This document shows positions 425 to 55,097 of a stretch of 64,000 nucleotides of DNA, piece by piece; position 1 is the stretch's first letter; each line of letters starts with the position of its first letter. The notes beneath the pieces are model-generated. The model ran no database searches. It had not been told where the DNA came from and worked only from the letters and a program-made list of their open reading frames with translations. The translations under genes were made by a program, and so were the position numbers. Origin of the DNA: Rhodospirillales bacterium (GTDB lineage Bacteria > Pseudomonadota > Alphaproteobacteria > JAJFIK01). Where the stretch lies: NCBI GenBank assembly GCA_021775005.1, contig JAJFIK010000056.1, positions 27,408-91,407 of the forward strand. Reading direction: 5' to 3'.

Positions 425-436
425 TAAGTGTCGTCC

Positions 437-1713: not shown

Positions 1714-1728
1714 TGGGGCTCAATGACG

Positions 1729-3591
1729 TTATTGCGAATGCGTGGTGCACTCCAGGCACATGACATAAGCATGATTTGGATCGTTCAGCTGGGTCAACAT
1801 GCGCCAATCGGCCCAGGCCCGCGCTAACTCACCAGACAGGGGATTTGGCACCTGGGTGGCGGTCAAACCATCATCAAGGCCAAACGCAGCGCTGGCTTGG
1901 GAGGAAAAGCTTTCCGCGAGCTGCTCCCAGATACTCTTGGGTACTTCCTGATAGTCTCGCACAACATAGTCCGTAAGGCCTGCAAGCGCAGCCGCCGATT
2001 TAATGGCGTCGTCCAATTCACCCAGATTGTCCACCAGGCCCAGCTCAAGGGCCGTTGCCCCCGCCCAGACCCGCCCTTGCGCAATGGCATCCACTTCTTC
2101 AACGGTCATATTGCGGGCTTCGCCAACACGTTCAAGAAATTGCTGGTAGCCATTTTCGATGCTGCCCTGGATCAGCGATGCGACCGTGGGATTTAGGGGC
2201 TGCAGGCCATCAATGCCATCGCTCAGGGGCGTTGTGCCAACACCATCGCGATGAATACCCATTAGGCCTAATGTGCCTTCAAATGTGGGGATCATGCCAA
2301 AGATGCCGATGGAGCCCGTAATCGTTGTGGGTGAGGCCCAAATTTCATCAGACGCCGTTGAAATCCAGTACCCGCCTGATGCTGCCAGATCGCCCATGGA
2401 TACCACCACCGGCAGACCTTGTTCACGCGCAAGGACGAGTTCGCGGCGAATGACTTCCGATGCGAAGGCTGAACCACCGGGGCTGTCCACACGAAGCACG
2501 ATGGCGCGCACATCATTGTTGTGGCGCGCTTCCCGAATCTGGCTGGCAATGGTGTCACCGCCCGCAGTGCCCGCCGGGGCCTCACCATTGACGATAATGC
2601 CGGCCGCCGTCACCACTGCAATCTCAGAGCCACTACCGGCGTTGTCATCATCCATGGCAGCAAGATATTGATGTAGGGAAACCTGATTGAAGGTGTGGTT
2701 ATCATCATCTGCGCCAACAATTGCAGAGAGATGATTGCGGTATTCGTCTTGATACATAAGCGAATCCACCATGCCCGCGTTCAACGCCATTTGGGCAAAA
2801 TCACCGCCGGCTGCTTCTGAGCTCGCCAGCACTGACTCTATGCCTGCATTGATGGTTCCAGGTGCCATGCCGCGGGCTGATTCAACATCGCTAGTGTAGT
2901 TGTCCCAAAGGATACTGAGATATCCAAGGTTTGCTTCCTGCGCTGCGGGGGACATGTCATCGCGGAAATAGGGCTCAAGCGCGGATTTGAAGGTGCCAAC
3001 GCGGAAGACATTGATGTTGACTTCGATACGCTCCAGCAGCTCTTGATAATAGCTCCGATACCGACCGTACCCGGTCAGGATCACACCGCCAAAGGGATGC
3101 ATAATAATTTCGTTGGCATGGGCGGCGAGCAGATACTGCTGATCAGAATATCCCGCGCCAATGGCATAAACCGGCTTGCCCGAATCTTTAAACTCTTCGA
3201 TGGCTGCGCCAATGCGGTGCATAGTTGAAGGACCACCGCCGATCATGTCGCCCAGGTAAAGCACTACCGCATCCACTCGATCATCGGTGGCGGCATGCTC
3301 AAGCGCGTCAAGAACGTCCTGCAGCCGGGTTTCAGGAACCTCGCCGCCAAACAACTCATTGAAAATCTCGTCGGCGGGATCGACTTGCGTCCCTTGCTCA
3401 ACGATGACCCCGACCGGATCGATGACCAAAGCCACCTGATTTGGGATTTGTGGGCCGTTTTGCATTGACCCTGCAATAACAGCGATAAACAAAAACACGG
3501 CAATAGTGGTAAAGACAAGCCAGCGAATGGCTCTTAATGGCCAAGCGGCGATCATAAAAATGCCGCCAAGTAACTTAAAAAACCCACCCAT
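1729..3591 (-). CDS. sppA: Signal peptide peptidase SppA, 67K type
   Basis: 620-aa ORF with an N-terminal TM segment and two tandem ClpP/crotonase-like halves. The second half carries VLRVDSPGGSAFASE and MGDLAASGGYWIS, typical of SppA. Confidence 0.85.
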   Translation of the reverse strand: MGGFFKLLGGIFMIAAWPLRAIRWLVFTTIAVFLFIAVIAGSMQNGPQIPNQVALVIDPVGVIVEQGTQVDPADEIFNELFGGEVPETRLQDVLDALEHAATDDRVDAVVLYLGDMIGGGPSTMHRIGAAIEEFKDSGKPVYAIGAGYSDQQYLLAAHANEIIMHPFGGVILTGYGRYRSYYQELLERIEVNINVFRVGTFKSALEPYFRDDMSPAAQEANLGYLSILWDNYTSDVESARGMAPGTINAGIESVLASSEAAGGDFAQMALNAGMVDSLMYQDEYRNHLSAIVGADDDNHTFNQVSLHQYLAAMDDDNAGSGSEIAVVTAAGIIVNGEAPAGTAGGDTIASQIREARHNNDVRAIVLRVDSPGGSAFASEVIRRELVLAREQGLPVVVSMGDLAASGGYWISTASDEIWASPTTITGSIGIFGMIPTFEGTLGLMGIHRDGVGTTPLSDGIDGLQPLNPTVASLIQGSIENGYQQFLERVGEARNMTVEEVDAIAQGRVWAGATALELGLVDNLGELDDAIKSAAALAGLTDYVVRDYQEVPKSIWEQLAESFSSQASAAFGLDDGLTATQVPNPLSGELARAWADWRMLTQLNDPNHAYVMCLECTTHSQ

Positions 3592-3811
3592 TATGCGCTC
3601 CTGTCATCCGCCCGCTTTGTCCCATTTGGCACAATCGCCAAAAGCCGCGAGCCACACTTATTATAGAGGCCCCCCGCGCCTGGTTAACCCCACGGCGGCA
3701 AGCTATCTTCATTAAGATGGAACTGTGTCACAGTCGTTTCAATGAATCGTGACCGAAAAGAGCATTCGGTTAATTGCGCAATGCACCATCACACGGGATA
3801 TACTGGGCCCT

Positions 3812-4813
3812 ATGGATACTGATTTGATGGAAAAAGCCGTTTCTGCCGATGACATTGAGGCAGCAGGGGAGAAGTTGAGGGCCGCGCGAGATGAGATCGC
3901 TCGTGTGGTTTTTGGGCAAAATCAAGTGGTTGAGGAGACCCTCATCACCCTTTTGGCTGGCGGACACGGCCTTTTGGTGGGGGTGCCAGGGCTGGCCAAG
4001 ACACGCCTTGTGGAGACCCTCGGCACCGTTTTGGGCCTCAGCGAGAAGCGCATTCAATTCACCCCCGACCTGATGCCCGGCGATATTGTCGGCTCTGAAG
4101 TGCTGGATGAGGACGGCGAAGGGCACCGCTCCTTCCGCTTCATCAAGGGGCCGGTGTTTTGCCAGCTCCTGATGGCGGACGAAATCAATCGTGCCTCCCC
4201 CCGAACCCAATCGGCACTTTTGCAAGCCATGCAGGAACACCATGTCACTGTTGCTGGCCAGCGCTATGACTTGCCGCACCCGTTTCATGTCCTCGCCACA
4301 CAAAACCCCATTGAGCAAGAAGGCACCTATCCCTTGCCCGAGGCCCAACTTGATCGCTTCATGATGCAGATCAATGTGGACTATCCTGATCGCGATGCCG
4401 AGCGTCAGATCTTGCTTGAGACCACTGGCGCGAAAGAATATGCACCTACCGAAATCATCACTGCCCTTGAGCTGGAACGGTTCCAACGCATTGTCCGCCA
4501 CTTGCCCGTTGGCGACAAAGTGGTGGATGCTATTTTGAACCTTGTGCGTTCAGCGCGTCCGGGGCGCGACGCGGAAGACTTTGTCCAGGAATCTGTAGAA
4601 TGGGGCCCCGGCCCCCGCGCATCGCAAGCGCTCACCCTCGGAATTCGGGCGCGGGCACTGCTTGATGGTCGCATCGCGCCGAGCATTGAAGATGTGAGGG
4701 CACTTGCCGAGCCTGTGCTGCAGCATCGCATGGCGTTGAGTTTTGCGGCCAGGGCAGACGGCAACAGTTTGAGTTCGGTAATTGCGCGTCTTGCGGCTCG
4801 TATGGAGGCCTAA
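3812..4813 (+). CDS. MoxR-family AAA+ ATPase
   Basis: Walker A GVPGLAKT, Walker B LLMADEINRASP, and the VLATQNPIEQEGTYPLPEAQLDRF sensor region. The ORF is open from 3749 (GTG). Met at 3812 or 3827 is more plausible; the start is uncertain. Confidence 0.85.
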   Translation: MDTDLMEKAVSADDIEAAGEKLRAARDEIARVVFGQNQVVEETLITLLAGGHGLLVGVPGLAKTRLVETLGTVLGLSEKRIQFTPDLMPGDIVGSEVLDEDGEGHRSFRFIKGPVFCQLLMADEINRASPRTQSALLQAMQEHHVTVAGQRYDLPHPFHVLATQNPIEQEGTYPLPEAQLDRFMMQINVDYPDRDAERQILLETTGAKEYAPTEIITALELERFQRIVRHLPVGDKVVDAILNLVRSARPGRDAEDFVQESVEWGPGPRASQALTLGIRARALLDGRIAPSIEDVRALAEPVLQHRMALSFAARADGNSLSSVIARLAARMEA

Positions 4814-4836: not shown

Positions 4837-5763
4837 ATGTCCGACCCATTGGCGCAACCTCAAATTACAAAACCTGCAGCCACCATCCGCGGCGAAGCAG
4901 AGGCAGTGGCCGCACACTTCCCCGCCTTGCTGGTGGAAGCCGGGCGACTTGCCGCCACCATCATTGTGGGCGAGCACGGCCGGCGGCAAGCCGGCATGGG
5001 CGAAGACTTCTGGCAGTTTCGTCATTTTCGCGAAGGCGATGGGCGCAGCGTTGTCGATTGGCGGCGATCCGCGCGCACGCACGGGCTCTTTGTGCGGGAG
5101 AATGAACGTGAAGCCGCGCAAACGGTTTGGCTTTGGTGCGATCCGTCTCAGTCTATGCGCTACAAATCCAACCTTGCGCCAGTAGAAAAAGCGGACCGGG
5201 CGCAGGTGCTATCGCTGGCCCTTGCGCTTTTGTTGACCCGCGCGGGCGAGCGCATCGGTAACCTTGCGTATCCGGATAAGGCACGCCGGGGCGAAATAGC
5301 GGTTCGCCTTGTTGCGCAGGCTATGCAATCGACCGCTACCTCAGCGTTTCCAAACCCGTCACCAAAATTTGCGCGCAGCACCATTGTCATGGTGAGCGAT
5401 TTTTTGGCCCCAACAAAAACCATCAGCGGATTTATTGCTCAGGTCGCAGGCGGTCACACCCAGGGGCATTTGGTGCAAGTCCTCGATCCGGCAGAAGAAA
5501 CCTGGCCCTTTGAGGGGCGTATGTTGTTTGAGGGCGCGAATGCAGAGCGCCTTCTCGCAGGGCGAGCACAGTCATTGCGCGGGGAATATTGCGCGCGCCT
5601 TAAGGCCCACCGCGATACCATCCGCGCTGCTTGCCGCCGGGTAGGTTGGAGCTTTACCGTCCACCACACAGATACACGGCCAGAACCCACTTTACTGGGG
5701 CTTTATGCACAATTGTCCGGGCAAGCAGAAATCGTCTCAAGTGCGAACGGCACGCAACCATGA
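4837..5763 (+). CDS. DUF58 domain protein (MoxR partner)
   Basis: 308-aa ORF. GEDFWQFRHFREGDGRSVVDWRRSAR is the characteristic DUF58 core. It sits immediately downstream of MoxR, as in Bat-type operons. Confidence 0.8.
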   Translation: MSDPLAQPQITKPAATIRGEAEAVAAHFPALLVEAGRLAATIIVGEHGRRQAGMGEDFWQFRHFREGDGRSVVDWRRSARTHGLFVRENEREAAQTVWLWCDPSQSMRYKSNLAPVEKADRAQVLSLALALLLTRAGERIGNLAYPDKARRGEIAVRLVAQAMQSTATSAFPNPSPKFARSTIVMVSDFLAPTKTISGFIAQVAGGHTQGHLVQVLDPAEETWPFEGRMLFEGANAERLLAGRAQSLRGEYCARLKAHRDTIRAACRRVGWSFTVHHTDTRPEPTLLGLYAQLSGQAEIVSSANGTQP

Positions 5764-8519
5764 GCGCTTTTCTGCCCCTTACATTCGGCGCGCCTTATAT
5801 TTTGCTGGCGCTTGCCGCACTGCCCGCCATTTGGTGGCTTTTGCGCGTCACGCCCCCGACCCCTCATCGCATGCGGTTTCCTGCCATCCGGCTATTGCTT
5901 GGCGTGAAGACCGACGAAGAAAGCCCTGCCCATACGCCCTGGTGGGTTCTGCTTTTGCGACTTGTGTTGGCGGCGGTGTTGATCATCGCTCTAGCCGCTC
6001 CGATTTGGAATGCGGCACCGCCCTCTAGCGCATCCGGTCCCTACGTGCTGGTGGTTGACAACACTTGGGCGGCAGCCCTCGGTTGGGATGAACGCACGGA
6101 TGTGATGCGCACCCTAATTGATCAAGCAACGCGCGACGGCGAAGCCGTCGTGTTCCTGCCCACTGCGCCCGGCCCCGCTGCCACCCCGCTAACGCTTTAT
6201 CGCCCTGGCGATGCACGCGATATTGTTGGCGCCATCGCGCCGCAGCCCTTCCTCGCAGACTATGACGCCCAAGTTGAATCACTGACCGAGCTTCAGGCCC
6301 TGCTCGGCGGCGGCCCGGCGCAAATATCGTGGCTCTCAGATGGTCTTGACGGCACTGGGCGTGCCTTCTTTGCCGAACAGCTGAACCAGCTCGGCCCCGT
6401 GAGCGTCTACACAGAAAACGCAGCCACCACATTGGCGCTGCTGCCCCCTCAGCTCGATCGGGAGGGCTTTATGCTTAGTTTATGCCGGGCGACAGCCTTG
6501 GACATCAATGCGACCGGGAACCTGCGCGCCATTGGCGGAAATGGTCGCACATTGGGCAGCGTCCCTTTCACTTTTGAAGAAAACAGCCGGGAGGTCGAAA
6601 CCCTTTTGCGGTTACCACTAGAACTTCGCAATGAAGTCACCCGCATTGAGATTGAAGGCCACGTTTCTGCAGGGGCGGTGGCGCTTGTGGATGAAAGCGC
6701 CCAGCGCCGCGCGGTCGGCATTGTATCTGGTGCAAGCACTTACGATGAGCAGCCGCTTTTGTCTGAGATGTTCTATTTGGATCGCGCCCTCGGCCCCTAT
6801 GCCGATCTACGCGAAGGCCCCATCGAAGAACTTCTCGCATTTGGCATCGACGTCTTGGTGCTTGCGGACGTTGGCGAGTTAGCTGGCAGCGAGTACGAGG
6901 CCGTGCGCGACTTTGTTTCCGCTGGCGGCGTGCTGATCCGTTTTGCAGGTCCGCGGCTGGCGTCCCTGGCCGACGATCTTTTGCCGGTGCGTCTGCGCGC
7001 GGGAGATCGTGCATTGGGCGGCTCACTCGCATGGGCAACACCGCAAGGCCTGTTGCCCTTTGCCGATACAAGTCCATTTGCCGGTTTGGATATTTCGGAA
7101 GATGTTCTTGTGGGTCATCAAGTACTTGCCGAACCAGAGATCGAGCTTGCGGGGAAAACCTGGGCGCGCCTTTCAGATGGCACACCGCTGGTCACCGGAG
7201 CGCGTTCTGGTGATGGCTGGCTGGTGCTGTTTCATGTCACCGCAAATCAGGATTGGTCATCCCTTGCCGCATCCGGGCTTTACGTTGAGATGTTGCAGCG
7301 CTTGTTGCCGCTTTCAGTGGGCGGCGCGGATCATTTGGCACACGGACAAGCCCAGGTTCTATTGCCGCCCCTCGCCATTCTGGACGGCTATGGCCGACTG
7401 CAAACCCCGCCGCCTACGGTGGAGCCCATCAGCGCCCGTAACCTGGCGGATATGACGCCCAGTCCGCGCCATCCGCCGGGGCTTTATGGGACCGAAATCG
7501 CGGCAAGTGCAATCAATACCGTGAGCGCACAAACACAGTTTGAGGCACCGCCGGATTGGGGGCCAGCGATAGTGCGAACCTACCAGGGCGGTACAGCGCT
7601 TGTGCTCCAACCACTGCTGCTCGCCATTGCCGTCGCGCTGTTCCTGCTCGACTTCACTTTGGCGCTGTTGCTTGCAGGACACTTCGCCCTTTCTACGCGA
7701 TGGCTCGCGCGGCTCACCCCAGCCCTGTTGGGCATGGTCTTGTTGGGGTTCGGCATGACAGAAGCGCGGGCGCAAGATGATATTAGCGATGGTGACCGGT
7801 GGCTCATTGAAGCGGTGAACGAGCTTCACCTTGCTTATGTCATCACCGGCGATCAGGCCTCTGACGATATGGCCCGCGCCGGGTTGGCGGGTCTGACGCG
7901 CTCCTTATTTGCGCGTACCACGGTTGAGCCAGCGGACCCCATTGGCGTTGACCTTACCGCTCACGAGCTGTCCGTGTTTCCTATGCTTTTCTGGCGTGTC
8001 GCCGAAGGTCAACCGCCATTGAGCGACATCGCGCGGGAGCGCCTGGCCACATATATGCGCAATGGCGGTACTTTGTTTATCGACACGGCCAACGAAGGTA
8101 CACCGCTGATCGGCGGTGGCCGGAGCGCCACATTACGTCGGCATTTACGCGGGCTCGATGTCCCCCCATTGGCGCCGGTGCCAGAGGACCATGTCCTGAC
8201 GCGCGCGTTTTATCTGCTCTCAGAATTTCCCGGGCGATTTGCTGGCGGAGATGTTTGGGTTGAAGCGCCAGGTCCCGATGGTCTCGTATCCGTCGGTCGC
8301 GATGGGGTGTCGCCCATTATTATCGGCTCCAATGACTTCGCCGCCGCCTGGGCTACTGATGATGCGGGACGCCCGCTCGCCGCTGTGGCACCAGGGGGTG
8401 AGCGCCAACGGGAAATTTCTACCAGGTTCGGCATCAACCTTGTGATGTATGTTCTCACCGGCAATTACAAATCAGACCAGGTTCACATCCCTGCGTTACT
8501 TGAGCGGCTCGGCCAATGA
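5760..8519 (+). CDS. BatA-N (double-TM N-terminal domain) / DUF4159 membrane protein
   Basis: Start chosen at ATG 5760 (MSAFLPLTFGAPYILLALAALPAIWWLLRVTPP), overlapping the DUF58 stop (ATGA). The C-terminal block LATYMRNGGTLFIDT...RAFYLLSEFPGRF...IIIGSNDFAAAW resembles DUF4159. The track ORF from 5631 is an upstream extension. Confidence 0.7.
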   Translation: MSAFLPLTFGAPYILLALAALPAIWWLLRVTPPTPHRMRFPAIRLLLGVKTDEESPAHTPWWVLLLRLVLAAVLIIALAAPIWNAAPPSSASGPYVLVVDNTWAAALGWDERTDVMRTLIDQATRDGEAVVFLPTAPGPAATPLTLYRPGDARDIVGAIAPQPFLADYDAQVESLTELQALLGGGPAQISWLSDGLDGTGRAFFAEQLNQLGPVSVYTENAATTLALLPPQLDREGFMLSLCRATALDINATGNLRAIGGNGRTLGSVPFTFEENSREVETLLRLPLELRNEVTRIEIEGHVSAGAVALVDESAQRRAVGIVSGASTYDEQPLLSEMFYLDRALGPYADLREGPIEELLAFGIDVLVLADVGELAGSEYEAVRDFVSAGGVLIRFAGPRLASLADDLLPVRLRAGDRALGGSLAWATPQGLLPFADTSPFAGLDISEDVLVGHQVLAEPEIELAGKTWARLSDGTPLVTGARSGDGWLVLFHVTANQDWSSLAASGLYVEMLQRLLPLSVGGADHLAHGQAQVLLPPLAILDGYGRLQTPPPTVEPISARNLADMTPSPRHPPGLYGTEIAASAINTVSAQTQFEAPPDWGPAIVRTYQGGTALVLQPLLLAIAVALFLLDFTLALLLAGHFALSTRWLARLTPALLGMVLLGFGMTEARAQDDISDGDRWLIEAVNELHLAYVITGDQASDDMARAGLAGLTRSLFARTTVEPADPIGVDLTAHELSVFPMLFWRVAEGQPPLSDIARERLATYMRNGGTLFIDTANEGTPLIGGGRSATLRRHLRGLDVPPLAPVPEDHVLTRAFYLLSEFPGRFAGGDVWVEAPGPDGLVSVGRDGVSPIIIGSNDFAAAWATDDAGRPLAAVAPGGERQREISTRFGINLVMYVLTGNYKSDQVHIPALLERLGQ

Positions 8520-12862: not shown

Positions 12863-13326
12863 GCGAACCAATTTGTGGATGGGACTTTGCCATGGCAAAG
12901 CTCATTCACTCTATTTTTGGTGCCAATCGTTGTGCCATCCGGCAAGGCATTTGGCGGGAAAAATCCAGCCCCGGCGATTTCCCAATTGGGGCTGAGATCG
13001 AACGAGGCGACGTTCACCCGGAACAGCATGATGTGATCTGATTTGCCCCGGTGGGGTGCGAAATAGACCGATGTCAGTTCCGGGGTGCCGACGACCGCCA
13101 ATCCCAACTCCTCGAAAACCTCCCGCGCTACCGCTTCTGCTGTGGTTTCATTTCGCGCGACGCCGCCGCCGGGCAGGTGCCACCCCGCCACATAGGAGTG
13201 GCGCACAAGCAAAATCTGCTGGTCATCATCGAAGATGGCGGCTTTGACCCCAAGCGTCACCGGGCGCCGCACCCTGGTCCAGATTCCAATAATCCAATGG
13301 ATCAATTTAAGAACTAAGGCGCGCAT
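12859..13326 (-). CDS. Nudix hydrolase
   Basis: 155-aa ORF with Nudix box GGGVARNETTAEAVAREVFEELG. It is convergent with the pirin gene and shares a 4-nt stop overlap. Confidence 0.8.
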   Translation of the reverse strand: MRALVLKLIHWIIGIWTRVRRPVTLGVKAAIFDDDQQILLVRHSYVAGWHLPGGGVARNETTAEAVAREVFEELGLAVVGTPELTSVYFAPHRGKSDHIMLFRVNVASFDLSPNWEIAGAGFFPPNALPDGTTIGTKNRVNELCHGKVPSTNWFA

Positions 13327-13423
13327 TTAGCGTTCGTTAACCTGCCGATTTAACCGGTTGTTGAAGCTCCCAACTGCATCATGCTGCCAGGGCTGAAAAA
13401 CACTATGGCACATTTCAGCACCA

Positions 13424-14122
13424 ATGGGACCGAGGGACATGTTCGGATTAGGAAAATCAACTTCGCAGACGGCGCAAAAGCCCTCACAGCCACGTCGGCG
13501 CGCTGATAAAAACGCTACCAGCGGAGAATTTGCTGTGCTGGCGGCGCTGCACAATGCCGCGCGGCGGTCATCGCCTCGTCGCGCTGGTGTTCGCGCTCAA
13601 ATTGCTCGCGCTATTGCGATTGTGGAGTCTGCGACAATGGGCCTGTGCCTTATTCGCGAACTCATTGATGAGAGCGAGGGCCTTTGTCGCTCCGCTTTGG
13701 AATCTGATGTGCCAGCTAAACGCGCACTCATTGCCGAACGCTATGATATGGTTCTCAAAGAGATAAACGCCATTGCCAAGGCCACTGGCCATAGCGGCGT
13801 TCATCTTATCGACGAATCAAATTCCACCATCACCGTTCGCGTCGTTGACGGCCAAAACATTTGCCTGAGTTTGCCGCATGTGGTTTTGACATCAAGCGCG
13901 CGCGGATTGGCGATGCCCAAAGCGGCAAAAGCCTTCGCATCTGATACCAACCTTCGCACTCTTGGCGATCACCTGGAGCTTGCCCGGGCTCGCCTTGACG
14001 ACGCGGCAACGCTGTTTCGCGATCATGCATCAGACTTATCAAAGCGGCTTGCATTCGTTCTTAACGGTACGGTGATGAACGGCGAAGACTTAAACAAAGC
14101 TGGCACCAACGCCGCGCGGTAA
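13424..14122 (+). CDS. Hypothetical protein, possibly a short divergent flagellin-like helical protein
   Basis: 232-aa ORF with a basic, low-complexity N-terminus. The middle block (ERYDMVLKEINAIAKATGHSGVHLIDESNSTITVRV) loosely resembles the flagellin N-domain pattern EF..l..EI.ria..t.fnG..lL. This is eyeballed only. Confidence 0.4.
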   Translation: MGPRDMFGLGKSTSQTAQKPSQPRRRADKNATSGEFAVLAALHNAARRSSPRRAGVRAQIARAIAIVESATMGLCLIRELIDESEGLCRSALESDVPAKRALIAERYDMVLKEINAIAKATGHSGVHLIDESNSTITVRVVDGQNICLSLPHVVLTSSARGLAMPKAAKAFASDTNLRTLGDHLELARARLDDAATLFRDHASDLSKRLAFVLNGTVMNGEDLNKAGTNAAR

Positions 14123-14261
14123 CGGGATTGGATCAATCCGGTTGATGCAGAAAATTACCCGCGCAATCAAATATTATCATGCTCAACCCGGTGTCGCTTT
14201 GCAATTGGAGACCGATTAGCTTGTAGAATCTGATTGATATTTCACGGTCGCTTACACGAAT

Positions 14262-14276
14262 GTCCATGAGATCGAC
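14262..14276. promoter_or_regulatory. Imperfect inverted repeat GTCCAT-GAG-ATCGAC upstream of the diiron oxygenase gene
   Basis: Read directly. It loosely resembles the GTC...GAC palindrome at 15544-15559, but the spacing differs. Confidence 0.2.
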
Positions 14277-14359
14277 TTTCTCAATGTCCAACGCTAGAAT
14301 GACGCCCAATTGGAAAGCAGATTTCTCGTCACCGACACCGCACCTACAGGGGCCCTGAA

Positions 14360-15493
14360 ATGACAAAACTTCGCGCCGACGGCAACATTACAGTTGATGC
14401 TGCGTATGAAGCAGCAGACCCGGAAGACTTTGCCTCCATGATCGAGGTTGATCGATACGGCGCCCGCTCAACAGCGTTTGATAAAATCATTTCTGCCACC
14501 CATGACCATTTCTGGGATCCGCTGGACAAGAAGTATATTGATTTCGATCAGCCGTTTGATTTGGAAAACGAATACATTATTGACCCCGATCAAGATGTTG
14601 ATCTCGCCACTGCCGTCAATGACAAGCTGGATGAAAAAAACAAAATCAAACTTGTGAACTTGAATATGTGGTGGGGGCTTTCATCCATATTGCATGGCGA
14701 GCAAGGGGCGCTGTCTCTGTCCGCATCGCTGGTGCATATTTTGAAAGATCCCGGCGCGCAGGAATATGCCGCCAATCAAACCCGCGAAGAAGCCCGTCAC
14801 GTCACCGCTTATGCCACATATGTGCAAACCCGCTGGGGTAAGCCCATTGTCTGTGGCCCCGCACTCAGCGGGCTTCTGACGGAACTGGTGGGCTCCAAGC
14901 TGGTCTGGAAGAAACTCGTAGGCATGCAAATGATGATCGAAGGCCTCGCCATGGGTGCTTTTGCCATGAACTACAGTTACGGGCGCGATCCGCTTTTGGT
15001 GAAGTTGAGCCAGCTGGTGATGACCGACGAAGCCTTCCACCATAAGTTTGGGAAAATCTGGGCTGACCGCACAGTCCCCAATCTGCCGGAAGACGAGCGT
15101 GTTCTGATTGAGGACTGGGCCTGGAAGGTGTTTGAGGTGCTGCTTTATAACCTCGCCAGTCCTGAGCAAAAGAAAGACATCTACGCCCAAGTGGGTCTGG
15201 ACTGGGAGTGGGTCCAAGGGGCGTTTATGGAGGCCATGACGGACAGCAATATTCGCGAGCGCTTGCAAGACCGCAACAATATCTTCCGAGTCCTCATCAA
15301 GACGCTGGTGAAAGCCGGCATCATCACCGACCGCACCGCTGGCAACTACGCCGCCTTTATCGACATGAAAGAGCTTTATGCCGAGAGCGACCACATGGTG
15401 GGGGACGATATTGCCGAGGAAGGCATCAAGTACCTCCTCGGGCTGAATAATACCGGTGGCAACCCGCTGACGCCGAGCCAAGCAGCAGAATAG
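14360..15493 (+). CDS. Ferritin-like diiron oxygenase (AurF / p-aminobenzoate N-oxygenase-like)
   Basis: 377-aa ORF. Two ExxH motifs (REEARHV and TDEAFHH) plus intervening glutamates (HGEQGAL, MIEGLAMG), as in four-helix-bundle diiron oxygenases. Confidence 0.65.
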   Translation: MTKLRADGNITVDAAYEAADPEDFASMIEVDRYGARSTAFDKIISATHDHFWDPLDKKYIDFDQPFDLENEYIIDPDQDVDLATAVNDKLDEKNKIKLVNLNMWWGLSSILHGEQGALSLSASLVHILKDPGAQEYAANQTREEARHVTAYATYVQTRWGKPIVCGPALSGLLTELVGSKLVWKKLVGMQMMIEGLAMGAFAMNYSYGRDPLLVKLSQLVMTDEAFHHKFGKIWADRTVPNLPEDERVLIEDWAWKVFEVLLYNLASPEQKKDIYAQVGLDWEWVQGAFMEAMTDSNIRERLQDRNNIFRVLIKTLVKAGIITDRTAGNYAAFIDMKELYAESDHMVGDDIAEEGIKYLLGLNNTGGNPLTPSQAAE

Positions 15494-15543
15494 GTACGTC
15501 CTGGGGCTGTTTTTGCCTCAACCTTGCTTTTTGGACTAAATTC

Positions 15544-15559
15544 GTCTATATGAATAGAC
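15544..15559. promoter_or_regulatory. Perfect inverted repeat GTCTAT-ATGA-ATAGAC, candidate HutC/PhnF-type operator
   Basis: Read directly, about 45 nt upstream of the GntR-family gene start. HutC-subfamily operators are typically GT-rich palindromes of the GTCTA/TAGAC type. Confidence 0.5.
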
Positions 15560-15602
15560 CTCCCAGGTACGGTGCTTGGGGGCTTGGTCTATGGAGCACC
15601 CA

Positions 15603-16337
15603 ATGAGTGAGGCGAATACGCCCATTGAGCGACGCAGCGGCATCTCCCTCTGGCGTCAGATCGCTCAACACCTGCGCAATGACATCGAGAGCGGTGCCCT
15701 ATCAAGCGGCGTCAAGCTGCCGACAGAGCCCGAGCTTGCCAAACGCTTTGGGGTCAATCGCCACACGGTGCGCCGCGCGGTGAGTGTGTTGCAGGATGGC
15801 GGGCTGGTTAGTGTTGAGCAGGGCCGGGGCACCTTCGTGCGCGAATGGGCCGATGGACATACCCTCACCAACCGCAGCAAACTATTCAAAGCGCCAGAAC
15901 AAGACGCCGCCGACAGCGGTGAGACCTTGGCGCTATCACACATTCCAGCGGAACCGCGCGTAGCGGCCGCCTTGCGGTTGCGACCAGGCGACGAGGTTAT
16001 TCAACTTGATCTGGTCAGTGTGATCGACCATCGCCCTGTGAGCCTTGCGTCCCATTATATTCCCGCCAAGCGTTTCAAGGGATTTGAGAAAGCCTTTAAG
16101 CGGACCCACTCGGTGGAAGAAGCGCTCAAGAAATGCGGCGTGAAAGGCCTCTCCCACGGACGCACCAAGGTGAGCGCAAGCTTGCCAAACCCCGCCGAGG
16201 CCAAGGTTCTCCGCTTGCCCAAGGGCCAACCGTTGGTGGTGGCAGAGAATGTCACGGTGGATCTCAAGGGCAATCCAGTAGATTTTACCATCGCGCGCAG
16301 TGCGGGAGGCCGCACGACCTTGGTATTTGAGGCCTGA
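15603..16337 (+). CDS. GntR family transcriptional regulator, HutC/PhnF subfamily (UTRA domain)
   Basis: Winged-HTH region LPTEPELAKRFGVNRHTVRRAVSVLQDGGLVSVEQGRGTFV followed by a UTRA-like C-terminal domain. ATG 15603 sits behind GGAG. The track ORF starts at TTG 15576. Confidence 0.8.
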   Translation: MSEANTPIERRSGISLWRQIAQHLRNDIESGALSSGVKLPTEPELAKRFGVNRHTVRRAVSVLQDGGLVSVEQGRGTFVREWADGHTLTNRSKLFKAPEQDAADSGETLALSHIPAEPRVAAALRLRPGDEVIQLDLVSVIDHRPVSLASHYIPAKRFKGFEKAFKRTHSVEEALKKCGVKGLSHGRTKVSASLPNPAEAKVLRLPKGQPLVVAENVTVDLKGNPVDFTIARSAGGRTTLVFEA

Positions 16338-28900: not shown

Positions 28901-29225
28901 AGGCTTTGCCACTTCTTTTGGTGAAGGGTATCTCATCGCTCTTGATACAGAACTAGATGAAGAGTTGATTGAAGCGGCGCGCCTGCGCGAGTTTCTCCGC
29001 CAGGCCCAAGACGCCCGACGCCGCGCAGGATTTGCCATTACAGATCGTATTCATATCGGCATAGAGGGCGTGAAGGCTGCCGAATTCCTTGCGCGCCACC
29101 AAGCAACGCTCTCTGCGGAACTATTGGCAACGGAGATTAAGCAAGCGGCGCTCGCGGGTGCAGAGATTTCAGAAGAAGTCGATCTTGATGGCGTCGAACT
29201 GACGTTTTCGTTGAAACGGGCCTAG
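25935..29225 (+). CDS. ileS: Isoleucine--tRNA ligase, long Thermus-like/type-2-like form
   Basis: 1096-aa ORF behind CAGGAG. YEGPPTANGKPGIHHV (HIGH region), GWDTHGLPVEIEVEKK, CPRCDTSLADHEV, KMSKTRGN (KMSKS). The N-terminal 200 aa align by eye with my memory of Thermus thermophilus IleRS. Confidence 0.9.
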   Translation: MFNDVSPKVSFPELEEKILAAWNAADIKRKAIAKDGGKGEWVFYEGPPTANGKPGIHHVSSRSVKDLYCRFKTMQGYHVDRRGGWDTHGLPVEIEVEKKIQSRGKQDVLKYGIEKFNALCKESVWEYMQDWNSLTDRIAFWVDLDRAYITYKNDYIETEWWILKNFFERGLLYEDYKTTMHCPRCDTSLADHEVSQGMKEDVDDPAVWVKFALRKDGLVERGLIAADESRPVSLMAWTTTPWTLGANVGLSVSKETTYVAVAARGQHGREEAPQELIIVAKPLVEAVFTDEETEIAFELKPQDLVGLRYEPVLCGEAPSDTNMDNIYTVFIDEMVEVDTGTGVIHNATAYGDMEVGDRHDLPVLFSVGRDGKMLPGLRFPDGAEGDGPYTGLFFKDADKQIIRDLKDRGTLYRSARIKHAYPHCWRDDTPLLFYAKTSWYIRTTAVKDKLLSNNQAINWVPDHVKQGRFGRWLENNIDWAISRERFWGCPLPIWKAEDGTCICVGSVQELSDLTGQDQSALDLHRPYVDDITFEKDGKTYRREEQTIDVWFDSGAMPYAQWHYPFEEPEKFADRFPADFISEAMDQTRGWFYSLHAISTLLTFGGNDEVPAGPLADIASNVSSFKNVVALGFINDAEGRKMSKTRGNTVDPWDVIGTEGCDPLRWYILSDNAPGTNLSFKRKDISQVHMGFFVTLWNVYSFFVTYANIAKPDLNAKLDQTERPEIDRWLDSKRHQLIQNVTAALEAFDAPRATSLISDFVDTHLSNWYVRRNRRRFWGGSELNADDANSGFRALYDALMAVVKLMAPMAPFVSEAIYSNLASAGDAKESIHLDNWPIADESMIDASLNEAMDLVLRLVYLGRSARSGANIRLRQPLRQVFLRLAKESDRQILDRYAEIIKEELNVGALVVLDPSALEQYVDYALRPNFQTLGKRLGKKVPAFRKTVSDPQVIASTVDAILGKREIKLSVDGEDMVFEADDFLLDVKGKAGFATSFGEGYLIALDTELDEELIEAARLREFLRQAQDARRRAGFAITDRIHIGIEGVKAAEFLARHQATLSAELLATEIKQAALAGAEISEEVDLDGVELTFSLKRA

Positions 29226-30034
29226 TGCCCCAGCGCACGTTGCGCCTTAAGGATATGAGATAGAAATTTCGCGAGCTGTTGCCAGCGACCTTGTCGTTTG
29301 AGCCCTTCGGGCAGCGCTCCAAAACTTTCAAAGCGCCACGGGTCCGCCGCGAGGGATGTATCGCGAGTCAGAATGCCAAACAGAAGCGCACCATCGTCTC
29401 CGGCATGGATAAGTAACAATTGCTCATCAGCAACCAGGATGAGTGTCCCATCGAACTCTGAGATGATGGCTGACGCGCTCTCTTGCGAGAGATCTGAGTT
29501 TTTTTCTGCGGTGCGAAGCAAATCAGCAATGCGCGCGCGCTCATCTGGATCGACAATAAACTGCGCCGGTGATGGGTCGCGCTCAATGGCCGGAGGAGGC
29601 GCGGCGACAATGTCAAATGTCACTCTGTTGGAATGTGACTTTTCACTGCCCGCACCCCGCCCCAATGCGAACACGCGAAAGCCGCTGGAGCGTTTACGCG
29701 CCATGGTAAAACCAATTTCAGCACTGACTTTGGGAATGCGAAACGAAGCCGGCAACACTGCCCCGGGACGGGATCGATTGTATGCCGCACTTTCACGATC
29801 AAGCTGGGTCTGCGCCTTGATCATCCCCTCGCCCACCTGATCAAAAAACTCTTCAATGCGTCCCGGCGGGGTGGCGCCGGGAATGAGCCCGCCCAACTGA
29901 TCCACTACTTGTTCAAGCCGCTCATGCAGCGCTATGAGTTTCTCATCAGAGAGGGACTCAAATTCAGAACGCTGCATGGCAAGGCTCCGCCGCGCATCCA
30001 ATAGCAGAGCAACAACTTGGTCTTGGGCGTTCAT
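29222..30034 (-). CDS. Hypothetical protein (270 aa), second gene of an uncharacterised pair
   Basis: Start taken at Met14 of the track ORF (MNAQDQVV...), giving a TGATG overlap with the upstream gene at 30032-30036. I see no TM segment, signal peptide or catalytic motif, and I recognise no family. Confidence 0.6.
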   Translation of the reverse strand: MNAQDQVVALLLDARRSLAMQRSEFESLSDEKLIALHERLEQVVDQLGGLIPGATPPGRIEEFFDQVGEGMIKAQTQLDRESAAYNRSRPGAVLPASFRIPKVSAEIGFTMARKRSSGFRVFALGRGAGSEKSHSNRVTFDIVAAPPPAIERDPSPAQFIVDPDERARIADLLRTAEKNSDLSQESASAIISEFDGTLILVADEQLLLIHAGDDGALLFGILTRDTSLAADPWRFESFGALPEGLKRQGRWQQLAKFLSHILKAQRALGH

Positions 30035-30594
30035 CAAGCTGCCGGAACACCAGGGATGGCCAGCCCCTGCCAAATCTCCATGGCGCTCTCTTGGATGGAG
30101 GCATCAAGCTCCGCCGGGGCGGGCAATGGCGGTGCCACATCGCCCACTTCCGCGGCGCGCGAGATCAATCGGTCGGCAAATTGCGCATCGGCATAAGCAT
30201 GGATGGTGGCAGTGATGCGGGCGCTGGCGCGATAGTCATGACCATAGCCTTGGGTCATGGCAGCATTGACCTGCAGCATTTTGAACGTGGCTCCCCCGCC
30301 AATGGTGGTTGAGCGTTGTTTGGATTCTGCCAGGTCTGCGCCAAACTCGATCGTTGTTTCTGTGAACTGATAACGGCTTGGCGACAGCCCCTTAAGGAGC
30401 GTCAACATCACTGCCGCGCGATCACTCGCGTCAAGCTCAGTTCCCAGGGTCTCGCGCGTCATGATCATGAGTGCTTGAAGGTTCTTGATGTAGTCTTTGT
30501 TTAAGAGTTTCTGAGCCGCAGCAATGTTGCGCCCCAGGTCGCCGATCACATCGGCGATCTCTACAAGTTGGCTGGTAAGTCTGTCTGCGCCCAT
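30034..30594 (-). CDS. Hypothetical protein (186 aa), first gene of an uncharacterised pair
   Basis: Start at Met98 of the track ORF (MGADRLTSQLVEIADVIG...) behind AAGAGGAGG (30605-30613). The upstream 97 codons of the track ORF translate to implausible Cys/Arg-rich sequence. Confidence 0.6.
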   Translation of the reverse strand: MGADRLTSQLVEIADVIGDLGRNIAAAQKLLNKDYIKNLQALMIMTRETLGTELDASDRAAVMLTLLKGLSPSRYQFTETTIEFGADLAESKQRSTTIGGGATFKMLQVNAAMTQGYGHDYRASARITATIHAYADAQFADRLISRAAEVGDVAPPLPAPAELDASIQESAMEIWQGLAIPGVPAA

Positions 30595-30667
30595 TTTTCT
30601 CAGGCCTCCTCTTATCTGTTGCGGATTACAGAATAAGGGCACCCGGGCACGAGGGCATTCAGCGGGG

Positions 30668-30702
30668 ATTAGTATTTTGGAATTGCCGCAAATCAGTATT
30701 TT
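30668..30702 (-). promoter_or_regulatory. Direct repeat AAAATACT(A/G)AT x2 (minus-strand reading), 24-nt register, upstream of the unknown pair
   Basis: Plus strand shows ATTAGTATTTT at 30668-30678 and ATCAGTATTTT at 30692-30702, inside the 146-bp gap between the MBOAT stop and the 186-aa ORF start. Confidence 0.35.
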
Positions 30703-30740
30703 CGGCGGCATTTCGTGGGGATTAATGTGGAGGTAATCCA

Positions 30741-32147
30741 CTAAAACTGAAAATAGTAGAAGTCCCTCACCCCTGATTTTTGCAAAGCATATGTTAGCGC
30801 GACGGCGACACCAAAGAAAATCGCGAATGAAGTGGCCGATAGTGCCTCCACTTTTTGTGCAAAACCAAACCGATGAAATGCCCACTGCGCCAGCAAGAGA
30901 GGGGGCACAAGGACAAGAGGATTTAGAGCCAGGGATTGCGAACCTGGCGTAAGTAATCCACTGCTGATGGCCACCATGGCCATGGAATCGCTGATTTGCT
31001 CCCCGCGAAACAATGAGTTTGAAACCATCAATAAGTACATTGTGAGAAGCCAGCCCAATATCCCTCTGAAGGGGATGTGGATGCTGCGCTTGGCCAAAAA
31101 GTTATGGAGCAGTCGGTGGCAGACGACAGCGACGCCGCCAAATGTACCCCAAGCGACAAATGTCCAGGCGGCACCATGCCAAATTCCGGCTGCAACATTG
31201 ACGATAAACAAGTTTAAGTACGTTCGCAAACGCCCCCTTCTGCCGCCCCCTAGTGGATAATACAAATAATCGCGCAACCATTCGGTCAGGCTAATATGCC
31301 AGCGTCGGCGATACTCAGAGAAATTTGTCACAAGAGCTGGCATATAGAAATTGTGATTCATGCGAAATCCCAACAGGCCCGCTGCGGCGATCGCCATATC
31401 TGAGTACCCTGAGAAATCGCAATAAATTTGAATTGTGAATCCAGCAAGCCCACCGAGCACCGAGAGGTACGTAAATCCTGTCGGATCGGCGAACACCGCA
31501 TCCACGTAGACACTTATGTTGTCGGCAAGGACCGTCTTTTTGAAAAAGCCAATCAAAAATAGAAGCAGACAAGCTTGAACCGGTACGGCGATCCATTTTC
31601 TAGCTGTCTCCAGCTGCGGCATGAACGTATGGGCACGCAAAATGGGACCCGCCACCAATTGAGGAAAAAACGCCACATACGCCGCCACTGTTACTGGATC
31701 GCGATTTGGTTTCGAACGCCGCGTGAAAACATCCAGCGTGTAGCTCATGGTCTGCAGGGTATAAAAACTGATGCCAACGGGCAGGATGATATTCAATGTG
31801 GTGAAGTCAAGCGATCCGCCAAACCCGGACACCAAAGTATCAAGCTGTTCGCCAAAGAAATTGAAATATTTGAAGAAACCCAAGATACCCAAGTTTACGA
31901 CTAAACTTAAAATCAGCCAGATGCGGCGCACTCGTTCATTTTTGCTCTCGTCAATGCGAATGGCGCAAATGTAATCAATCGCCGTCGAAAGGAAGATCAA
32001 TCCAAGAAAGCGCCAATCCCAAACTGCGTAGAAAGCGTAACTTCCTATGACAATGAGCAGATTTCGACTTCGCACCGACCGGAACGACCAGTAGATGAGA
32101 AAGAAGACTCCCAGAAATAGTAGAAACCGAAACTCAACGAAGAGCAT
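30741..32147 (-). CDS. MBOAT family O-acyltransferase (AlgI/DltB/PatA-like)
   Basis: Start at MLFVEFRFLLFLGVFF, the typical MBOAT N-terminus. Multi-TM throughout, with the conserved His region RRWHISLTEWLRDYLYYPLGG. G+C is lower than in the flanks. Confidence 0.85.
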   Translation of the reverse strand: MLFVEFRFLLFLGVFFLIYWSFRSVRSRNLLIVIGSYAFYAVWDWRFLGLIFLSTAIDYICAIRIDESKNERVRRIWLILSLVVNLGILGFFKYFNFFGEQLDTLVSGFGGSLDFTTLNIILPVGISFYTLQTMSYTLDVFTRRSKPNRDPVTVAAYVAFFPQLVAGPILRAHTFMPQLETARKWIAVPVQACLLLFLIGFFKKTVLADNISVYVDAVFADPTGFTYLSVLGGLAGFTIQIYCDFSGYSDMAIAAAGLLGFRMNHNFYMPALVTNFSEYRRRWHISLTEWLRDYLYYPLGGGRRGRLRTYLNLFIVNVAAGIWHGAAWTFVAWGTFGGVAVVCHRLLHNFLAKRSIHIPFRGILGWLLTMYLLMVSNSLFRGEQISDSMAMVAISSGLLTPGSQSLALNPLVLVPPLLLAQWAFHRFGFAQKVEALSATSFAIFFGVAVALTYALQKSGVRDFYYFQF

Positions 32148-33201
32148 GACCACCACCCGTCGTCAGTACCGAGCAGAGATCTGGAGCAAGGCGCTCCGCG
32201 AACACAATCGCTCCCCGATTTGAGAGGTGACTGGCATTGAACCAATTTTCCGGTTCGAACATTTCCGGGAACGAGTCAGCATTGTTCGCATTGAGTGACA
32301 AATATTGACCGTCAATAGACGAGAGTCCCGGGGGGAACATGTTCGCGCCGACCGAACGAAGCAACGTTGGCATCGTGAAGACTAAACCCGGCACATCATC
32401 TTGTATGCGGGACACCCGAGAAGCCATGTATTGAGCAGCGGCGGGCGTAAGCACTGGCATCTGTGTCGGATCATGGGCCTGTCGATATTGAATAGCCGCT
32501 CGAGTGGCTACCGGGTCCATGCTGTCCTCTTGCTCATGAGGGATGTATCCATTGCTCGCGGCGGTATCAAAAACGTCTTGACTTGGCCAGACGAAATCAA
32601 GGCGCCGTTGTCCCAAGGCACCTAGGAGCAAGTGCGAGCTTCGTTGATTTAAGCGGCGAAGTCGCTCCGCTAGTCTTGGGTCTGCATATTGAAATTCGTT
32701 CCACATGGCGTATGCGTGCAGGGTCGGACTGGATTGAAAAACATTACTGCGAACATTGACCGAGGCAAGATGGGCCGACAGCACGATGAGGTCTGGTGGG
32801 GGTCCGTCGAGAGAGGCGATTTGATTGAGGATTGCAATCTCTTCCTGCGGCCCCAGAAGTGGGAAGGCGGCCAGGAACACTTCGACGTTGCAGCCGGACC
32901 TGTTCATCCAATGTGTGAGTTGCTCGGTATTGATCCCATTAAAGATGAGGCTTGTGCCCACAAACACAATGCGTTGCGCCGCATCGCTGCGGCCATATTC
33001 GGAGAGTGAAATACTACTTGCGGGTATGCGATTTATGCCTGCCACCGCCACAGTGCGATTGACTGTTGCCGCATTGAGTAACAGGCCGGTCGCGAGCACC
33101 GTGCCGATACAGAGAACAAAAAATGCGATTCTTGCGCTAATAGATTTTCGAATTTTGCCTTCGTCAGCCAACGGCAATGGCTGAGGGATAATTTTTGACA
33201 C
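32134..33201 (-). CDS. Membrane-anchored SGNH/DltD-like partner of the MBOAT protein
   Basis: 355-aa ORF with one N-terminal TM segment. Possible block I serine (IVFVGTSLIF) and a C-terminal N-x-x-H block (FNASHLSNRG) in the position of SGNH block V. It overlaps the MBOAT start by 14 nt. Confidence 0.5.
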   Translation of the reverse strand: MSKIIPQPLPLADEGKIRKSISARIAFFVLCIGTVLATGLLLNAATVNRTVAVAGINRIPASSISLSEYGRSDAAQRIVFVGTSLIFNGINTEQLTHWMNRSGCNVEVFLAAFPLLGPQEEIAILNQIASLDGPPPDLIVLSAHLASVNVRSNVFQSSPTLHAYAMWNEFQYADPRLAERLRRLNQRSSHLLLGALGQRRLDFVWPSQDVFDTAASNGYIPHEQEDSMDPVATRAAIQYRQAHDPTQMPVLTPAAAQYMASRVSRIQDDVPGLVFTMPTLLRSVGANMFPPGLSSIDGQYLSLNANNADSFPEMFEPENWFNASHLSNRGAIVFAERLAPDLCSVLTTGGGHALR

Positions 33202-36470: not shown

Positions 36471-36547
36471 TGGTAGCGAAGGAGGGACTTGAACCCCCGA
36501 CACGCGGATTATGATTCCGCTGCTCTAACCAGCTGAGCTACTTCGCC
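36471..36547 (-). tRNA. tRNA with CAU anticodon (elongator Met, or Ile2 if lysidinylated)
   Basis: Minus strand reads GGCGAAG-TA-GCTC-AGCTGGTTA-GAGC-A-GCGGA-ATCATAA-TCCGC-GTGTC-GGGGG-TTCAAGT-CCCTC-CTTCGCT-A-CCA. This is a 77-nt cloverleaf with an encoded CCA. It has a G1:U72 pair rather than the initiator-type C1xA72 mismatch, and no triple G:C run in the anticodon stem. Confidence 0.9.
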
Positions 36548-53745: not shown

Positions 53746-54921
53746 TCAAGATTGCGCGGCTTTGACCTGGGCATAGGCCCAGTCGAGCCACGGGAATAGC
53801 GCTTCGAGATCCGATTGCTCCACGGTGCATCCCGCCCAGATACGCAAACCTGGGGGCGCATCGCGGTAACCGCCGATGTCAAAGGCAACGCCCTCTTTTT
53901 CAAGAAGCGACGCGATCTTTTTGGGAATGGCCACTTGTACGTCTTCGGGCAAGCGCGCAAACCAGGGGTCGATCACCTTGAGACAAACAGAGGTATTGGA
54001 GCGGGTCGCCGCATCTTCGCAAAGATGCCCGATCCAATCGCTCCCCCGCACCCAGGCATCAATGGCCGCGGCATTGCCATCAGCTTTTGCCATCAGGCCG
54101 TCAAGCCCGCCGATGGATCGCCCCCATGCTAGGGCGTCGAGAAAGTCTTCCACACACAACATAGACGGCGTGTTGATCGTTGCGCCGGCGTAAACCCCGT
54201 CGATCAGCTTACCGCCCTTGGTCAGCCGAAAGATTTTTGGCAAGGGCCACGGCGGGATGTAGCTCTCAAGGCGCGCAACAGCACGAGGGCTAAGGGCAAT
54301 CATGCCGTGGGCAGCCTCGCCCCCCATGACCTTTTGCCAGGAGAATGTGACCACATCGAGCTTGGGCCAATCGAGGTCTTGCGCAAATGCGGCCGACGTG
54401 GCGTCGCAGATGGTCAAGCCTTCGCGGTCGTCGGGAACCCAATCGGCGTTGGGAACCCGTACGCCCGATGTGGTGCCATTCCAGGTGAAGACGCAATCGC
54501 GGGCACCATCATACTGGGTCATATCCGGCAGCGCGCCGTAGTCCGCTTCGATGACGCGCACATCATCGAGCTTGAGTTGCTTTTGAACGTCAGACACCCA
54601 CCCGGTGCCAAAACTCTCCCAGGCGAAAATATCAACCCCGCGCGCGCCAAGAAGCGACCAGAGGGCAAGCTCCACCGCGCCCGTGTCCGACGCCGGTACA
54701 ATACCGAGACGATAATCACCGGGCATGCCCAGTAGCTCTTTGGCCTCATTGATGAGAGATTTGAGTTTTGCTTTTCCCGGTGCAGAGCGATGGGACCGCC
54801 CCAAGGCGGCAGCGCTGAGAATTTCCGGTGTCCAACCTGGACGCTTAGCGCACGGTCCAGATGAAAAATGCGGCCGCTCTGGCCGCACGTCAGGCCTTTC
54901 AGCCTGTATTGCTTCAGTCAT
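53746..54921 (-). CDS. serC: Phosphoserine aminotransferase
   Basis: Start at Met104 of the track ORF ([30 protein letters not shown]). [10 protein letters not shown] lysine region. Immediately upstream of serA. The longer track ORF is an implausible extension. Confidence 0.85.
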
Positions 54922-55097
54922 CACTATTCCTTCCAGAATAGATGCACCCCGGTGGGGGGGCGTGGCCCACATAGAGGAGAACGCCATTTGCTGCGGCGCG
55001 TCAAATGATCTTTTCGCCGCAGAGGGCAGCCCTGCGAATTTGGGGGCGCTGTTGCGGCCAATGATGTGGTAAGCTTGCGGAAAACTTGAGGAATGCC

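Follow-up and report, generated by a model that had tools for sequence, protein, structure and literature searches.

A rare operon of mutually related proteins and its two-gene form beside ileS in a Rhodospirillales bacterium

Trypco1 and Trypco2, renamed Pepco, are 117-residue proteins that form sodium dodecyl sulfate (SDS)-resistant β-barrels of 9 to 10 subunits with basal amphipathic helices; they are pore-forming defence effectors that become toxic once a linked protease removes their C-terminal tail (bioRxiv 10.1101/2025.11.14.688446). Here we describe a pair of minus-strand open reading frames, ORF1 and ORF2, within a 64,000-nucleotide stretch of a Rhodospirillales genome (assembly GCA_021775005.1, contig JAJFIK010000056.1, positions 27,408 to 91,407), the whole of which is called the window. 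An earlier note on this DNA had singled out the pair as unassignable proteins and a candidate for an undescribed module, and our searches agree, as no above-threshold match was found in Pfam, NCBIfam, PADLOC, PHROGs or PDB sequences, nor with Foldseek. The pair belongs to a genuine, undescribed and conserved module that is larger than the two genes of the window; it is the reduced form of a four-gene operon, which the earlier note had missed. Among other pore-formers, the binary α-pore-forming toxins of the ClyA superfamily (YaxAB, XaxAB) are, like the pair, encoded by adjacent genes for distantly related subunits, which are active only as a hetero-oligomer. These toxins are all-α proteins of 350-400 residues, exported as virulence factors, and differ from the pair in showing no Pfam or Foldseek similarity to it. 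Bacterial gasdermins and EACC1 offer a possible functional analogy only: they are small, non-enzymatic cytoplasmic proteins whose strands pair between subunits and which carry an extra inhibitory segment. They differ in being single proteins freed by a linked protease, of which there is none here, and neither their sequence nor their fold matched the pair.

The two genes and their junctions are as follows.

30034-30594, minus strand: ORF1 (family O1), 186 residues, ATG at 30594-30592 and TGA at 30036-30034 (ORF list and translation)
29222-30034, minus strand: ORF2 (family O2), 270 residues, ATG at 30034-30032 and TAG at 29224-29222 (ORF list and translation)
30605-30613, minus strand: Shine-Dalgarno sequence AAGAGGAGG, 10 nt 5' of the ORF1 ATG (direct reading of the sequence)
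30032-30036, minus strand: TGATG, the overlapping ORF1 stop and ORF2 start, with one base (A) in common, a translational coupling (direct reading)
29222-29225: CTAG, the overlapping stop codons of ORF2 (minus strand) and ileS (plus strand), with no intergenic terminator

Reading the sequence confirmed every coordinate that the earlier note had given for the two frames, the strong Shine-Dalgarno sequence and the TGATG overlap. The stops of ileS and ORF2 converge in the CTAG palindrome with zero intergenic space, and the same 4-nt overlap is found at the closest related locus, L001 (9357-9360). The ORF1-ORF2 junction is an 8-nt overlap in L001 and a 5-nt gap in L002. Neither protein has a signal peptide or a transmembrane segment, as had been noted before: the highest 19-residue Kyte-Doolittle mean is 0.73 in ORF1 and 1.19 in ORF2. 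Both are acidic, with isoelectric points of 4.9 and 5.6.

Both ORFs are genuine genes under purifying selection and not chance frames. A set of 5.8 billion proteins holds 59 homologues of ORF1 and 17 of ORF2, many of them on the same contigs, and the alignments contain 17 and 45 invariant columns, respectively. Against L001, the closest pair (79% identity for ORF1, 67% for ORF2), the ratio of nonsynonymous to synonymous substitution rates (dN/dS) is 0.07 for ORF1 and 0.15 for ORF2, compared with 0.05 for ileS, with dS near saturation (~1.7-1.95). The homologue and dN/dS checks that the earlier note had proposed against spurious frames thus both speak for conservation. An exhaustive search with profile hidden Markov models (HMMs) recovered ~200 clusters at 50% identity among 1.84 billion proteins; the family is rare.

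To catalogue the module, we scanned one genome per species, which gave 60 loci. The carriers represent seven phyla and were found in Pseudomonadota (alpha, gamma and Hydrogenophilales), Verrucomicrobiota, Acidobacteriota, Bacteroidota, Planctomycetota, Myxococcota and Syntrophobacterales; Luteolibacter marinus NBU1238 (Verrucomicrobiota) is the only cultured carrier among them. At no fewer than 56 of the 60 loci, the gene immediately 3' of an O1-like gene is O2-like and shares its strand, with the gene order unchanged; this answers the question of co-occurrence raised in the earlier note. Two of the four loci lacking this adjacency are contig ends. Clustering of the neighbouring ORFs revealed that the usual unit comprises four genes, O0-O1-O2-O3. 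O0 (105-165 residues) precedes the pair in most other genomes, clusters with ORF1 and is a short paralogue of O1; O3 (about 440-560 residues) is the fourth gene and a long paralogue of O2. Beyond these four, other gene families recur at 7 loci at most. In the window, the O1 HMM matches ORF1 (3.5e-72) and the O2 HMM matches ORF2 (5.4e-52), which places the pair in the O1-O2 module, and the O0 and O3 HMMs detect no further gene in the 64 kb. This two-gene form, with one member from each paralogue pair, is shared by five loci (the window, L001, L002, L009 and L010), and in four alphaproteobacterial genomes of this group the pair adjoins ileS. Because only a single clade has two genes and most of its relatives have four, loss from the four-gene operon would be the simplest explanation.

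Variants of the operon were also found. In a Pseudomonadota metagenome-assembled genome (MAG; JBCCGG010000003.1, locus L005, 8724-10421), O2 is a 565-residue in-frame tandem duplication with two complete O2 units. At L016, O1 carries an Ala-rich, probably coiled-coil C-terminal extension of ~330 residues. No fusion between different paralogues was found in these loci: the O2-O2 tandem of L005 is the only real one, and other long ORFs are start-codon artefacts or low-complexity extensions. One Myxococcales MAG contig (JAEUKB010000021.1) has two O1 copies ~34 kb apart, of which L063 is a full operon; the other (L036), and L042 in another Myxococcales MAG, feature O1 with no recognisable O2 downstream. 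Small domainless genes (131, 139 and 202 residues) lie 3' of O3 on the same strand at some loci (L120, 10066-10859; L005, 11936-12544) and may be lineage-specific additions to the operon.

The O0 HMM also locates the domain that the proteins have in common.

30187-30573, minus strand: shared domain in ORF1, residues 8-136 (O0 HMM, independent E-value 3.9e-14)
29570-29857, minus strand: shared domain in ORF2, residues 60-155 (O0 HMM, independent E-value 7.8e-7, same profile columns as in ORF1)

In ORF1 this domain comprises an amphipathic helix with G-x2-I-A-x-AQ-x2-L-N-x-D-Y, a helical insert, P-S-R-Y-Q and three amphipathic strands with a Gly-rich loop between. In ORF2 it comprises a helix with G-E-G-M-x2-AQ-x2-L-D-R-x-S-x2-Y, then L-P-x2-[YF]-R-I-P-K-V-x-A-E-I-G-F-T, and strands ending in V-x-F-[DE]-I-[VI]-x-x-P-P. 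Across the families, the common domain spans ~100-130 residues: an AQ-x2-L-[DN] amphipathic helix is followed by a P-[SA]-x-[YF]-[QR] turn and then by three amphipathic strands, which end close to a proline. The earlier note had proposed by eye that the two proteins are distant paralogues with one layout. The O0 HMM aligns both in register and reproduces its motif pairs, given here as ORF1/ORF2: VIGDLGRNIAAAQKLL/VGEGMIKAQTQLD, SRYQFTETTIEF/ASFRIPKVSAEIGF and ARITATIHA/RVTFDIVAAP. ORF2 is additionally matched by the O3 HMM (6.7e-12). A direct profile comparison of ORF1 with ORF2 by hhalign was non-significant (probability 0.15%; E=0.01 in a second comparison). With alignments from the 60 loci, hhalign linked O0 to O1 (E=7e-13), O0 to O2 (E=1.4e-9) and O2 to O3 (E=2.5e-10), while reversed-sequence controls gave E-values of at least 0.05; the plain O0 HMM matches all O1 proteins and 27 of 59 O2 proteins. 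These comparisons support ORF1 and ORF2 as distant paralogues, transitively and via O0 only; at the level of sequence profiles, the paralogy covers all four families.

None of these families could be assigned. Scans of ORF1 and ORF2 against Pfam, NCBIfam and PADLOC at E≤10 returned nothing except a chance-level VirD1 match (E=0.078, 12.9 bits against a cut-off of 173). When the pair, its homologues, the O0 and O3 neighbours and the family consensuses were scanned against Pfam, NCBIfam, PADLOC and PHROGs, only sub-threshold Trypco2 matches were obtained. All four families gave only chance-level matches in PADLOC-DB v2 (E≥0.05), and PDB sequence-profile searches with O0, O1, O2 and O3 found nothing below E=0.1. 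A likeness to DUF2589 (PF11655), suggested in the earlier note, could not be verified: none of the Pfam scans, which covered both proteins, the consensuses, 41 O0 proteins and 40 O1 homologues (E up to 1-10), lists this family.

Structural predictions divide each protein into parts of unequal confidence. In the AlphaFold2 (AF2) monomer models, the helices are placed with fair confidence, and the predicted local distance difference test (pLDDT) falls below 50 in the shared β region (residues 88-123 of ORF1, 97-153 of ORF2). In each protein, conservation is highest in this region, which is also the only one that AF2 cannot place in the monomer. Because the conserved region fails to fold alone, the models suggest that it folds between subunits. 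Column-averaged hydrophobicity has a β-type periodicity in the predicted strands and an α-type periodicity in the helices. The domain of ~110 residues that the earlier note had seen at the C-terminus of the longer protein is placed well by AF2:

29225-29566, minus strand: ORF2-specific C-terminal α/β domain, residues 157-270 (AF2 pLDDT ~84-93 for the most part, ~57-66 in the last 30 residues)

Its predicted order is one strand, two helices, four strands and one helix. Foldseek searches with the AF2 models, which are of low confidence, found no match at E≤0.001 in the PDB or BFVD.

The explanation that we favour, while placing it somewhat short of an even chance, is a hetero-oligomeric ring or barrel of paralogous subunits that is possibly membrane-active, and in which the extra domains of O2 and O3 are regulatory. 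From the translational coupling, the gene linkage and the paralogy we infer a hetero-oligomer. ORF1 and ORF2 would be expressed together as two diverged paralogous subunits of an undescribed, conserved multi-subunit assembly, and would co-assemble through the shared β region into a ring or β-barrel, with the amphipathic helices on one face as in the Pepco barrel. The regulatory or adaptor part, replacing the Pepco protease, would be the C-terminal α/β domain of ORF2 and, at other loci, the large O3. The assembly would be cytoplasmic and would probably act on the membrane from inside, in permeabilisation or a stress response. In favour of such an assembly we count the TGATG overlap behind a single Shine-Dalgarno sequence, the purifying selection on both genes, the O1-O2 linkage, the four-gene architecture, the in-register common domain and the strand periodicity, as well as the O2-O2 fusion of L005, a single chain in which the domain is present twice. 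A β region that is not placed in the monomer is what would be expected if it folds only between subunits. A weak lead is added by the sub-threshold match of the O0 consensus to Trypco2 (PF19631), the sole Pfam match obtained (E=0.0011, 19.5 bits, positions 12-75 of 78).

In layout, the pair has features in common with Trypco2/Pepco. Both appear to run from an N-terminal amphipathic helix through an F-R-x-x-x-x-x-A-E-hydrophobic strand and a loop rich in Gly to a closing strand of alternating pattern; ORF2 reads ASFRIPKVSAEIGFTM...RVTFDIVAAP where SsPepco reads QFRFEVEQAELCLEVEF...QTLTLTLNV. The strands are amphipathic, the proteins appear cytoplasmic and lack an enzymatic motif, and O0 is near Pepco in size. 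The layout and periodicity of the helix and three-strand amphipathic meander with its Gly-rich loop are compatible with Pepco, in a region where AF2 pLDDT is below 50. Unlike Pepco, however, the module has no linked trypsin- or caspase-type protease and no STAND/VMAP sensor, and it comprises two to four different paralogues rather than one homo-oligomeric subunit. Its proteins are larger, ORF1 having a helical insert and ORF2 both N-terminal helices and the 110-residue C-terminal domain. Its hosts are Proteobacteria, Acidobacteriota, Verrucomicrobiota and others, whereas Pepco is found mainly in Actinobacteria and cyanobacteria, and its contexts are mostly non-defence. By this analogy, Pepco may represent what the module works like, not the family that it belongs to.

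Several results weigh against the membrane-active barrel, and against its Pepco-like character in particular. The AF2 monomers are of low confidence overall (mean pLDDT 60 for ORF1 and 69 for ORF2). The Trypco2-type resemblance, which the earlier note had offered, stays below the PF19631 gathering score (19.5 against 24.2 bits for the O0 consensus). Further matches were limited to one subfamily consensus (E=0.021) and 2 of 41 natural O0 proteins (best E=0.061), and all are no better than unrelated control hits from reversed and other consensuses (E ~0.002-0.01). ORF1 and ORF2 themselves have no match to PF19631 at E≤10. The SsPepco sequence, taken from the preprint supplement, scores 65.6 bits against PF19631 as a positive control (E=5e-18), and it has no match to the O0 HMM. 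Comparison by hhalign of 10, then 41, Streptomyces Pepco sequences with O0-O3 gave no significant match (best E-value 0.015), a weak negative given how narrow the Pepco profile is (effective number of sequences 2.3). A search for a broader Pepco set, by genome scans and plasmid tblastn, returned only Streptomyces and Kitasatospora relatives, which keeps the profile narrow. No protease partner was found: O0-O3 alone are conserved near the module, and the Pfam-annotated neighbourhoods are empty of proteases. When all ORFs of 68 loci were searched by phmmer with the protease domain of SsAvs4, nothing scored below E=0.26. Lastly, the mostly housekeeping contexts, which include cbb3 oxidase, TRAP transporter, MoCF and ileS genes at various loci, argue against a suicide toxin. 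A more specific form of the favoured explanation, which we consider unlikely, would be a new kind of bacterial hetero-oligomeric β-barrel or ring, protease-free and made of two to four Pepco-like paralogues, controlled by its own domains, with a stable chromosomal role in membrane stress or permeabilisation rather than as a phage-defence suicide switch.

The best-surviving alternative to the membrane-active ring is doubtful, though less so than its strictly Pepco-like form. Here the same domain would build a soluble scaffolding hetero-oligomer, such as a filament, a ring, or a granule- or nucleoid-associated coat, acting away from the membrane, and the likeness to Trypco2 would be coincidental. 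Stable vertical inheritance beside ileS in four alphaproteobacterial genomes, together with the housekeeping neighbours elsewhere, speaks for such a role. So do the acidic proteins with long amphipathic helices and no hydrophobic segments, the probable coiled-coil extension of O1 at L016 and the lack of statistical support for the Trypco2 link. By contrast, Pfam, PDB-profile and Foldseek searches revealed no likeness to known cytoskeletal or scaffold families, and the rarity of the family and its patchy spread over seven phyla are more in keeping with an accessory than with a core structural module.

The same patchy spread, which resembles horizontal transfer, could instead point to an anti-phage or conflict system, with the small O0 and O1 as effectors and the longer O2 and O3 as sensors or inhibitors. 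The one family with any resemblance to the module, Pepco, is a defence effector. Mobile or defence genes neighbour the four-gene operon at some loci: L119 has Tc-toxin genes (TcA/TcB) and a DDE transposase (1-4281, 5136-6293), while L120 has a HEPN/nucleotidyltransferase pair along with a type IIG restriction-modification gene (1715-2454, 12964-16089). We nevertheless regard a defence role as improbable, and as less probable than any of the readings above. PADLOC has no model that fits any of the four families, and no protease, NTPase or nuclease is linked to them. Carriage by plasmids or phages was rejected, since no copy was found on 72,556 plasmids or in 50,697 phage records and PHROGs gave no match. 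The copy in the window lies between ileS and housekeeping genes and has a native composition: the G+C content of ORF1 (0.578) and ORF2 (0.558) matches the window mean (0.562). The earlier note had described the pair as intermediate in G+C and as sitting at the edge of an accessory stretch. Neither description holds for the pair itself, which adjoins ileS in four related genomes; a low value is found only in the gene upstream. Given its window-like composition and synteny with ileS, a foreign origin of the pair was rejected.

The upstream side of the pair in the window comprises a putative control region and two further genes.

30640-30724, minus strand: putative upstream control region, two copies of an 18-nt repeat, then CCCTTATTCTGT
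30741-33201, same strand as the pair: an MBOAT acyltransferase gene (471 residues) overlapping a gene for 355 residues, upstream of the pair

The repeats that the earlier note had ascribed to the pair are indeed present, as an imperfect 18-nt direct repeat (15/18; TAATCCCCRCKRAATGCC on the coding strand, at 30671-30654 and 30724-30707) and a pair of 11-mers. An element composed of TTATCCCCGCTNAAT-CCCGCA, ~15 nt and CTATCCTGT stands 5' of ORF1 in all five genomes with the two-gene form, and the window has a second, diverged copy 53 nt further upstream. The proximal repeat copy and a CTATCCTGT-like box are kept in L001, L002, L009 and L010, of which L002 has no MBOAT gene upstream. Scans of the spacer found no sigma-70 consensus and no Rfam match. 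On sequence grounds, the conserved element looks like a promoter of a non-sigma-70 type or like an operator. The boxes were also considered as a promoter of RpoH or extracytoplasmic function (ECF) type; their spacing fitted poorly, and no such claim is made.

The MBOAT gene and its 355-residue partner precede the pair at L001 and in the window alone, which suggests a lineage-specific insertion with no relation to the pair. That ORF1 and ORF2 are accessory factors of these two genes, in the modification of an envelope polymer, is suggested by their position on the same strand directly downstream, and is nonetheless close to refuted. None of the other loci examined has the MBOAT pair, its G+C content differs (0.489 for the MBOAT gene against 0.56-0.58), and a spacer of 146 nt separates it from ORF1, with a conserved element that is present also in the MBOAT-free L002. 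Moreover, neither ORF1 nor ORF2 has a signal peptide or transmembrane segment. A functional link between the pair and MBOAT was rejected, as the association is limited to the window and L001. Conservation likewise refutes the idea of spurious or decaying frames, for which only the complete lack of functional annotation speaks, through the homologues in seven phyla, the invariant columns, the low dN/dS and the conserved gene order.

Overall, these data turn two hypothetical genes into a defined protein family with a shared domain, a fixed gene order, a probably ancestral form of four genes and a minimal form of two, for which Pfam, NCBIfam, PADLOC and PHROGs hold no model and PDB sequences no relative. 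If the link to Pepco is true, the mini β-barrel pore fold would extend beyond the protease-gated defence modules of Actinobacteria and cyanobacteria, to assemblies that combine several paralogues and have no protease, in at least seven phyla. If it is false, the module is still a rare, widely scattered operon of subunits related to one another, and their most conserved region defies modelling as a monomer, which makes it a good target for multimer modelling and cryo-electron microscopy (cryo-EM). The two-gene form in the window is the smallest system to reconstitute.

Elsewhere in the window, a single tRNA-Met lies at 36471-36547, and a serC leader (Rfam RF00517, 46 bits) at 54920-54972. The serC leader family is alphaproteobacterial, which fits the taxonomy of the closest homologues.

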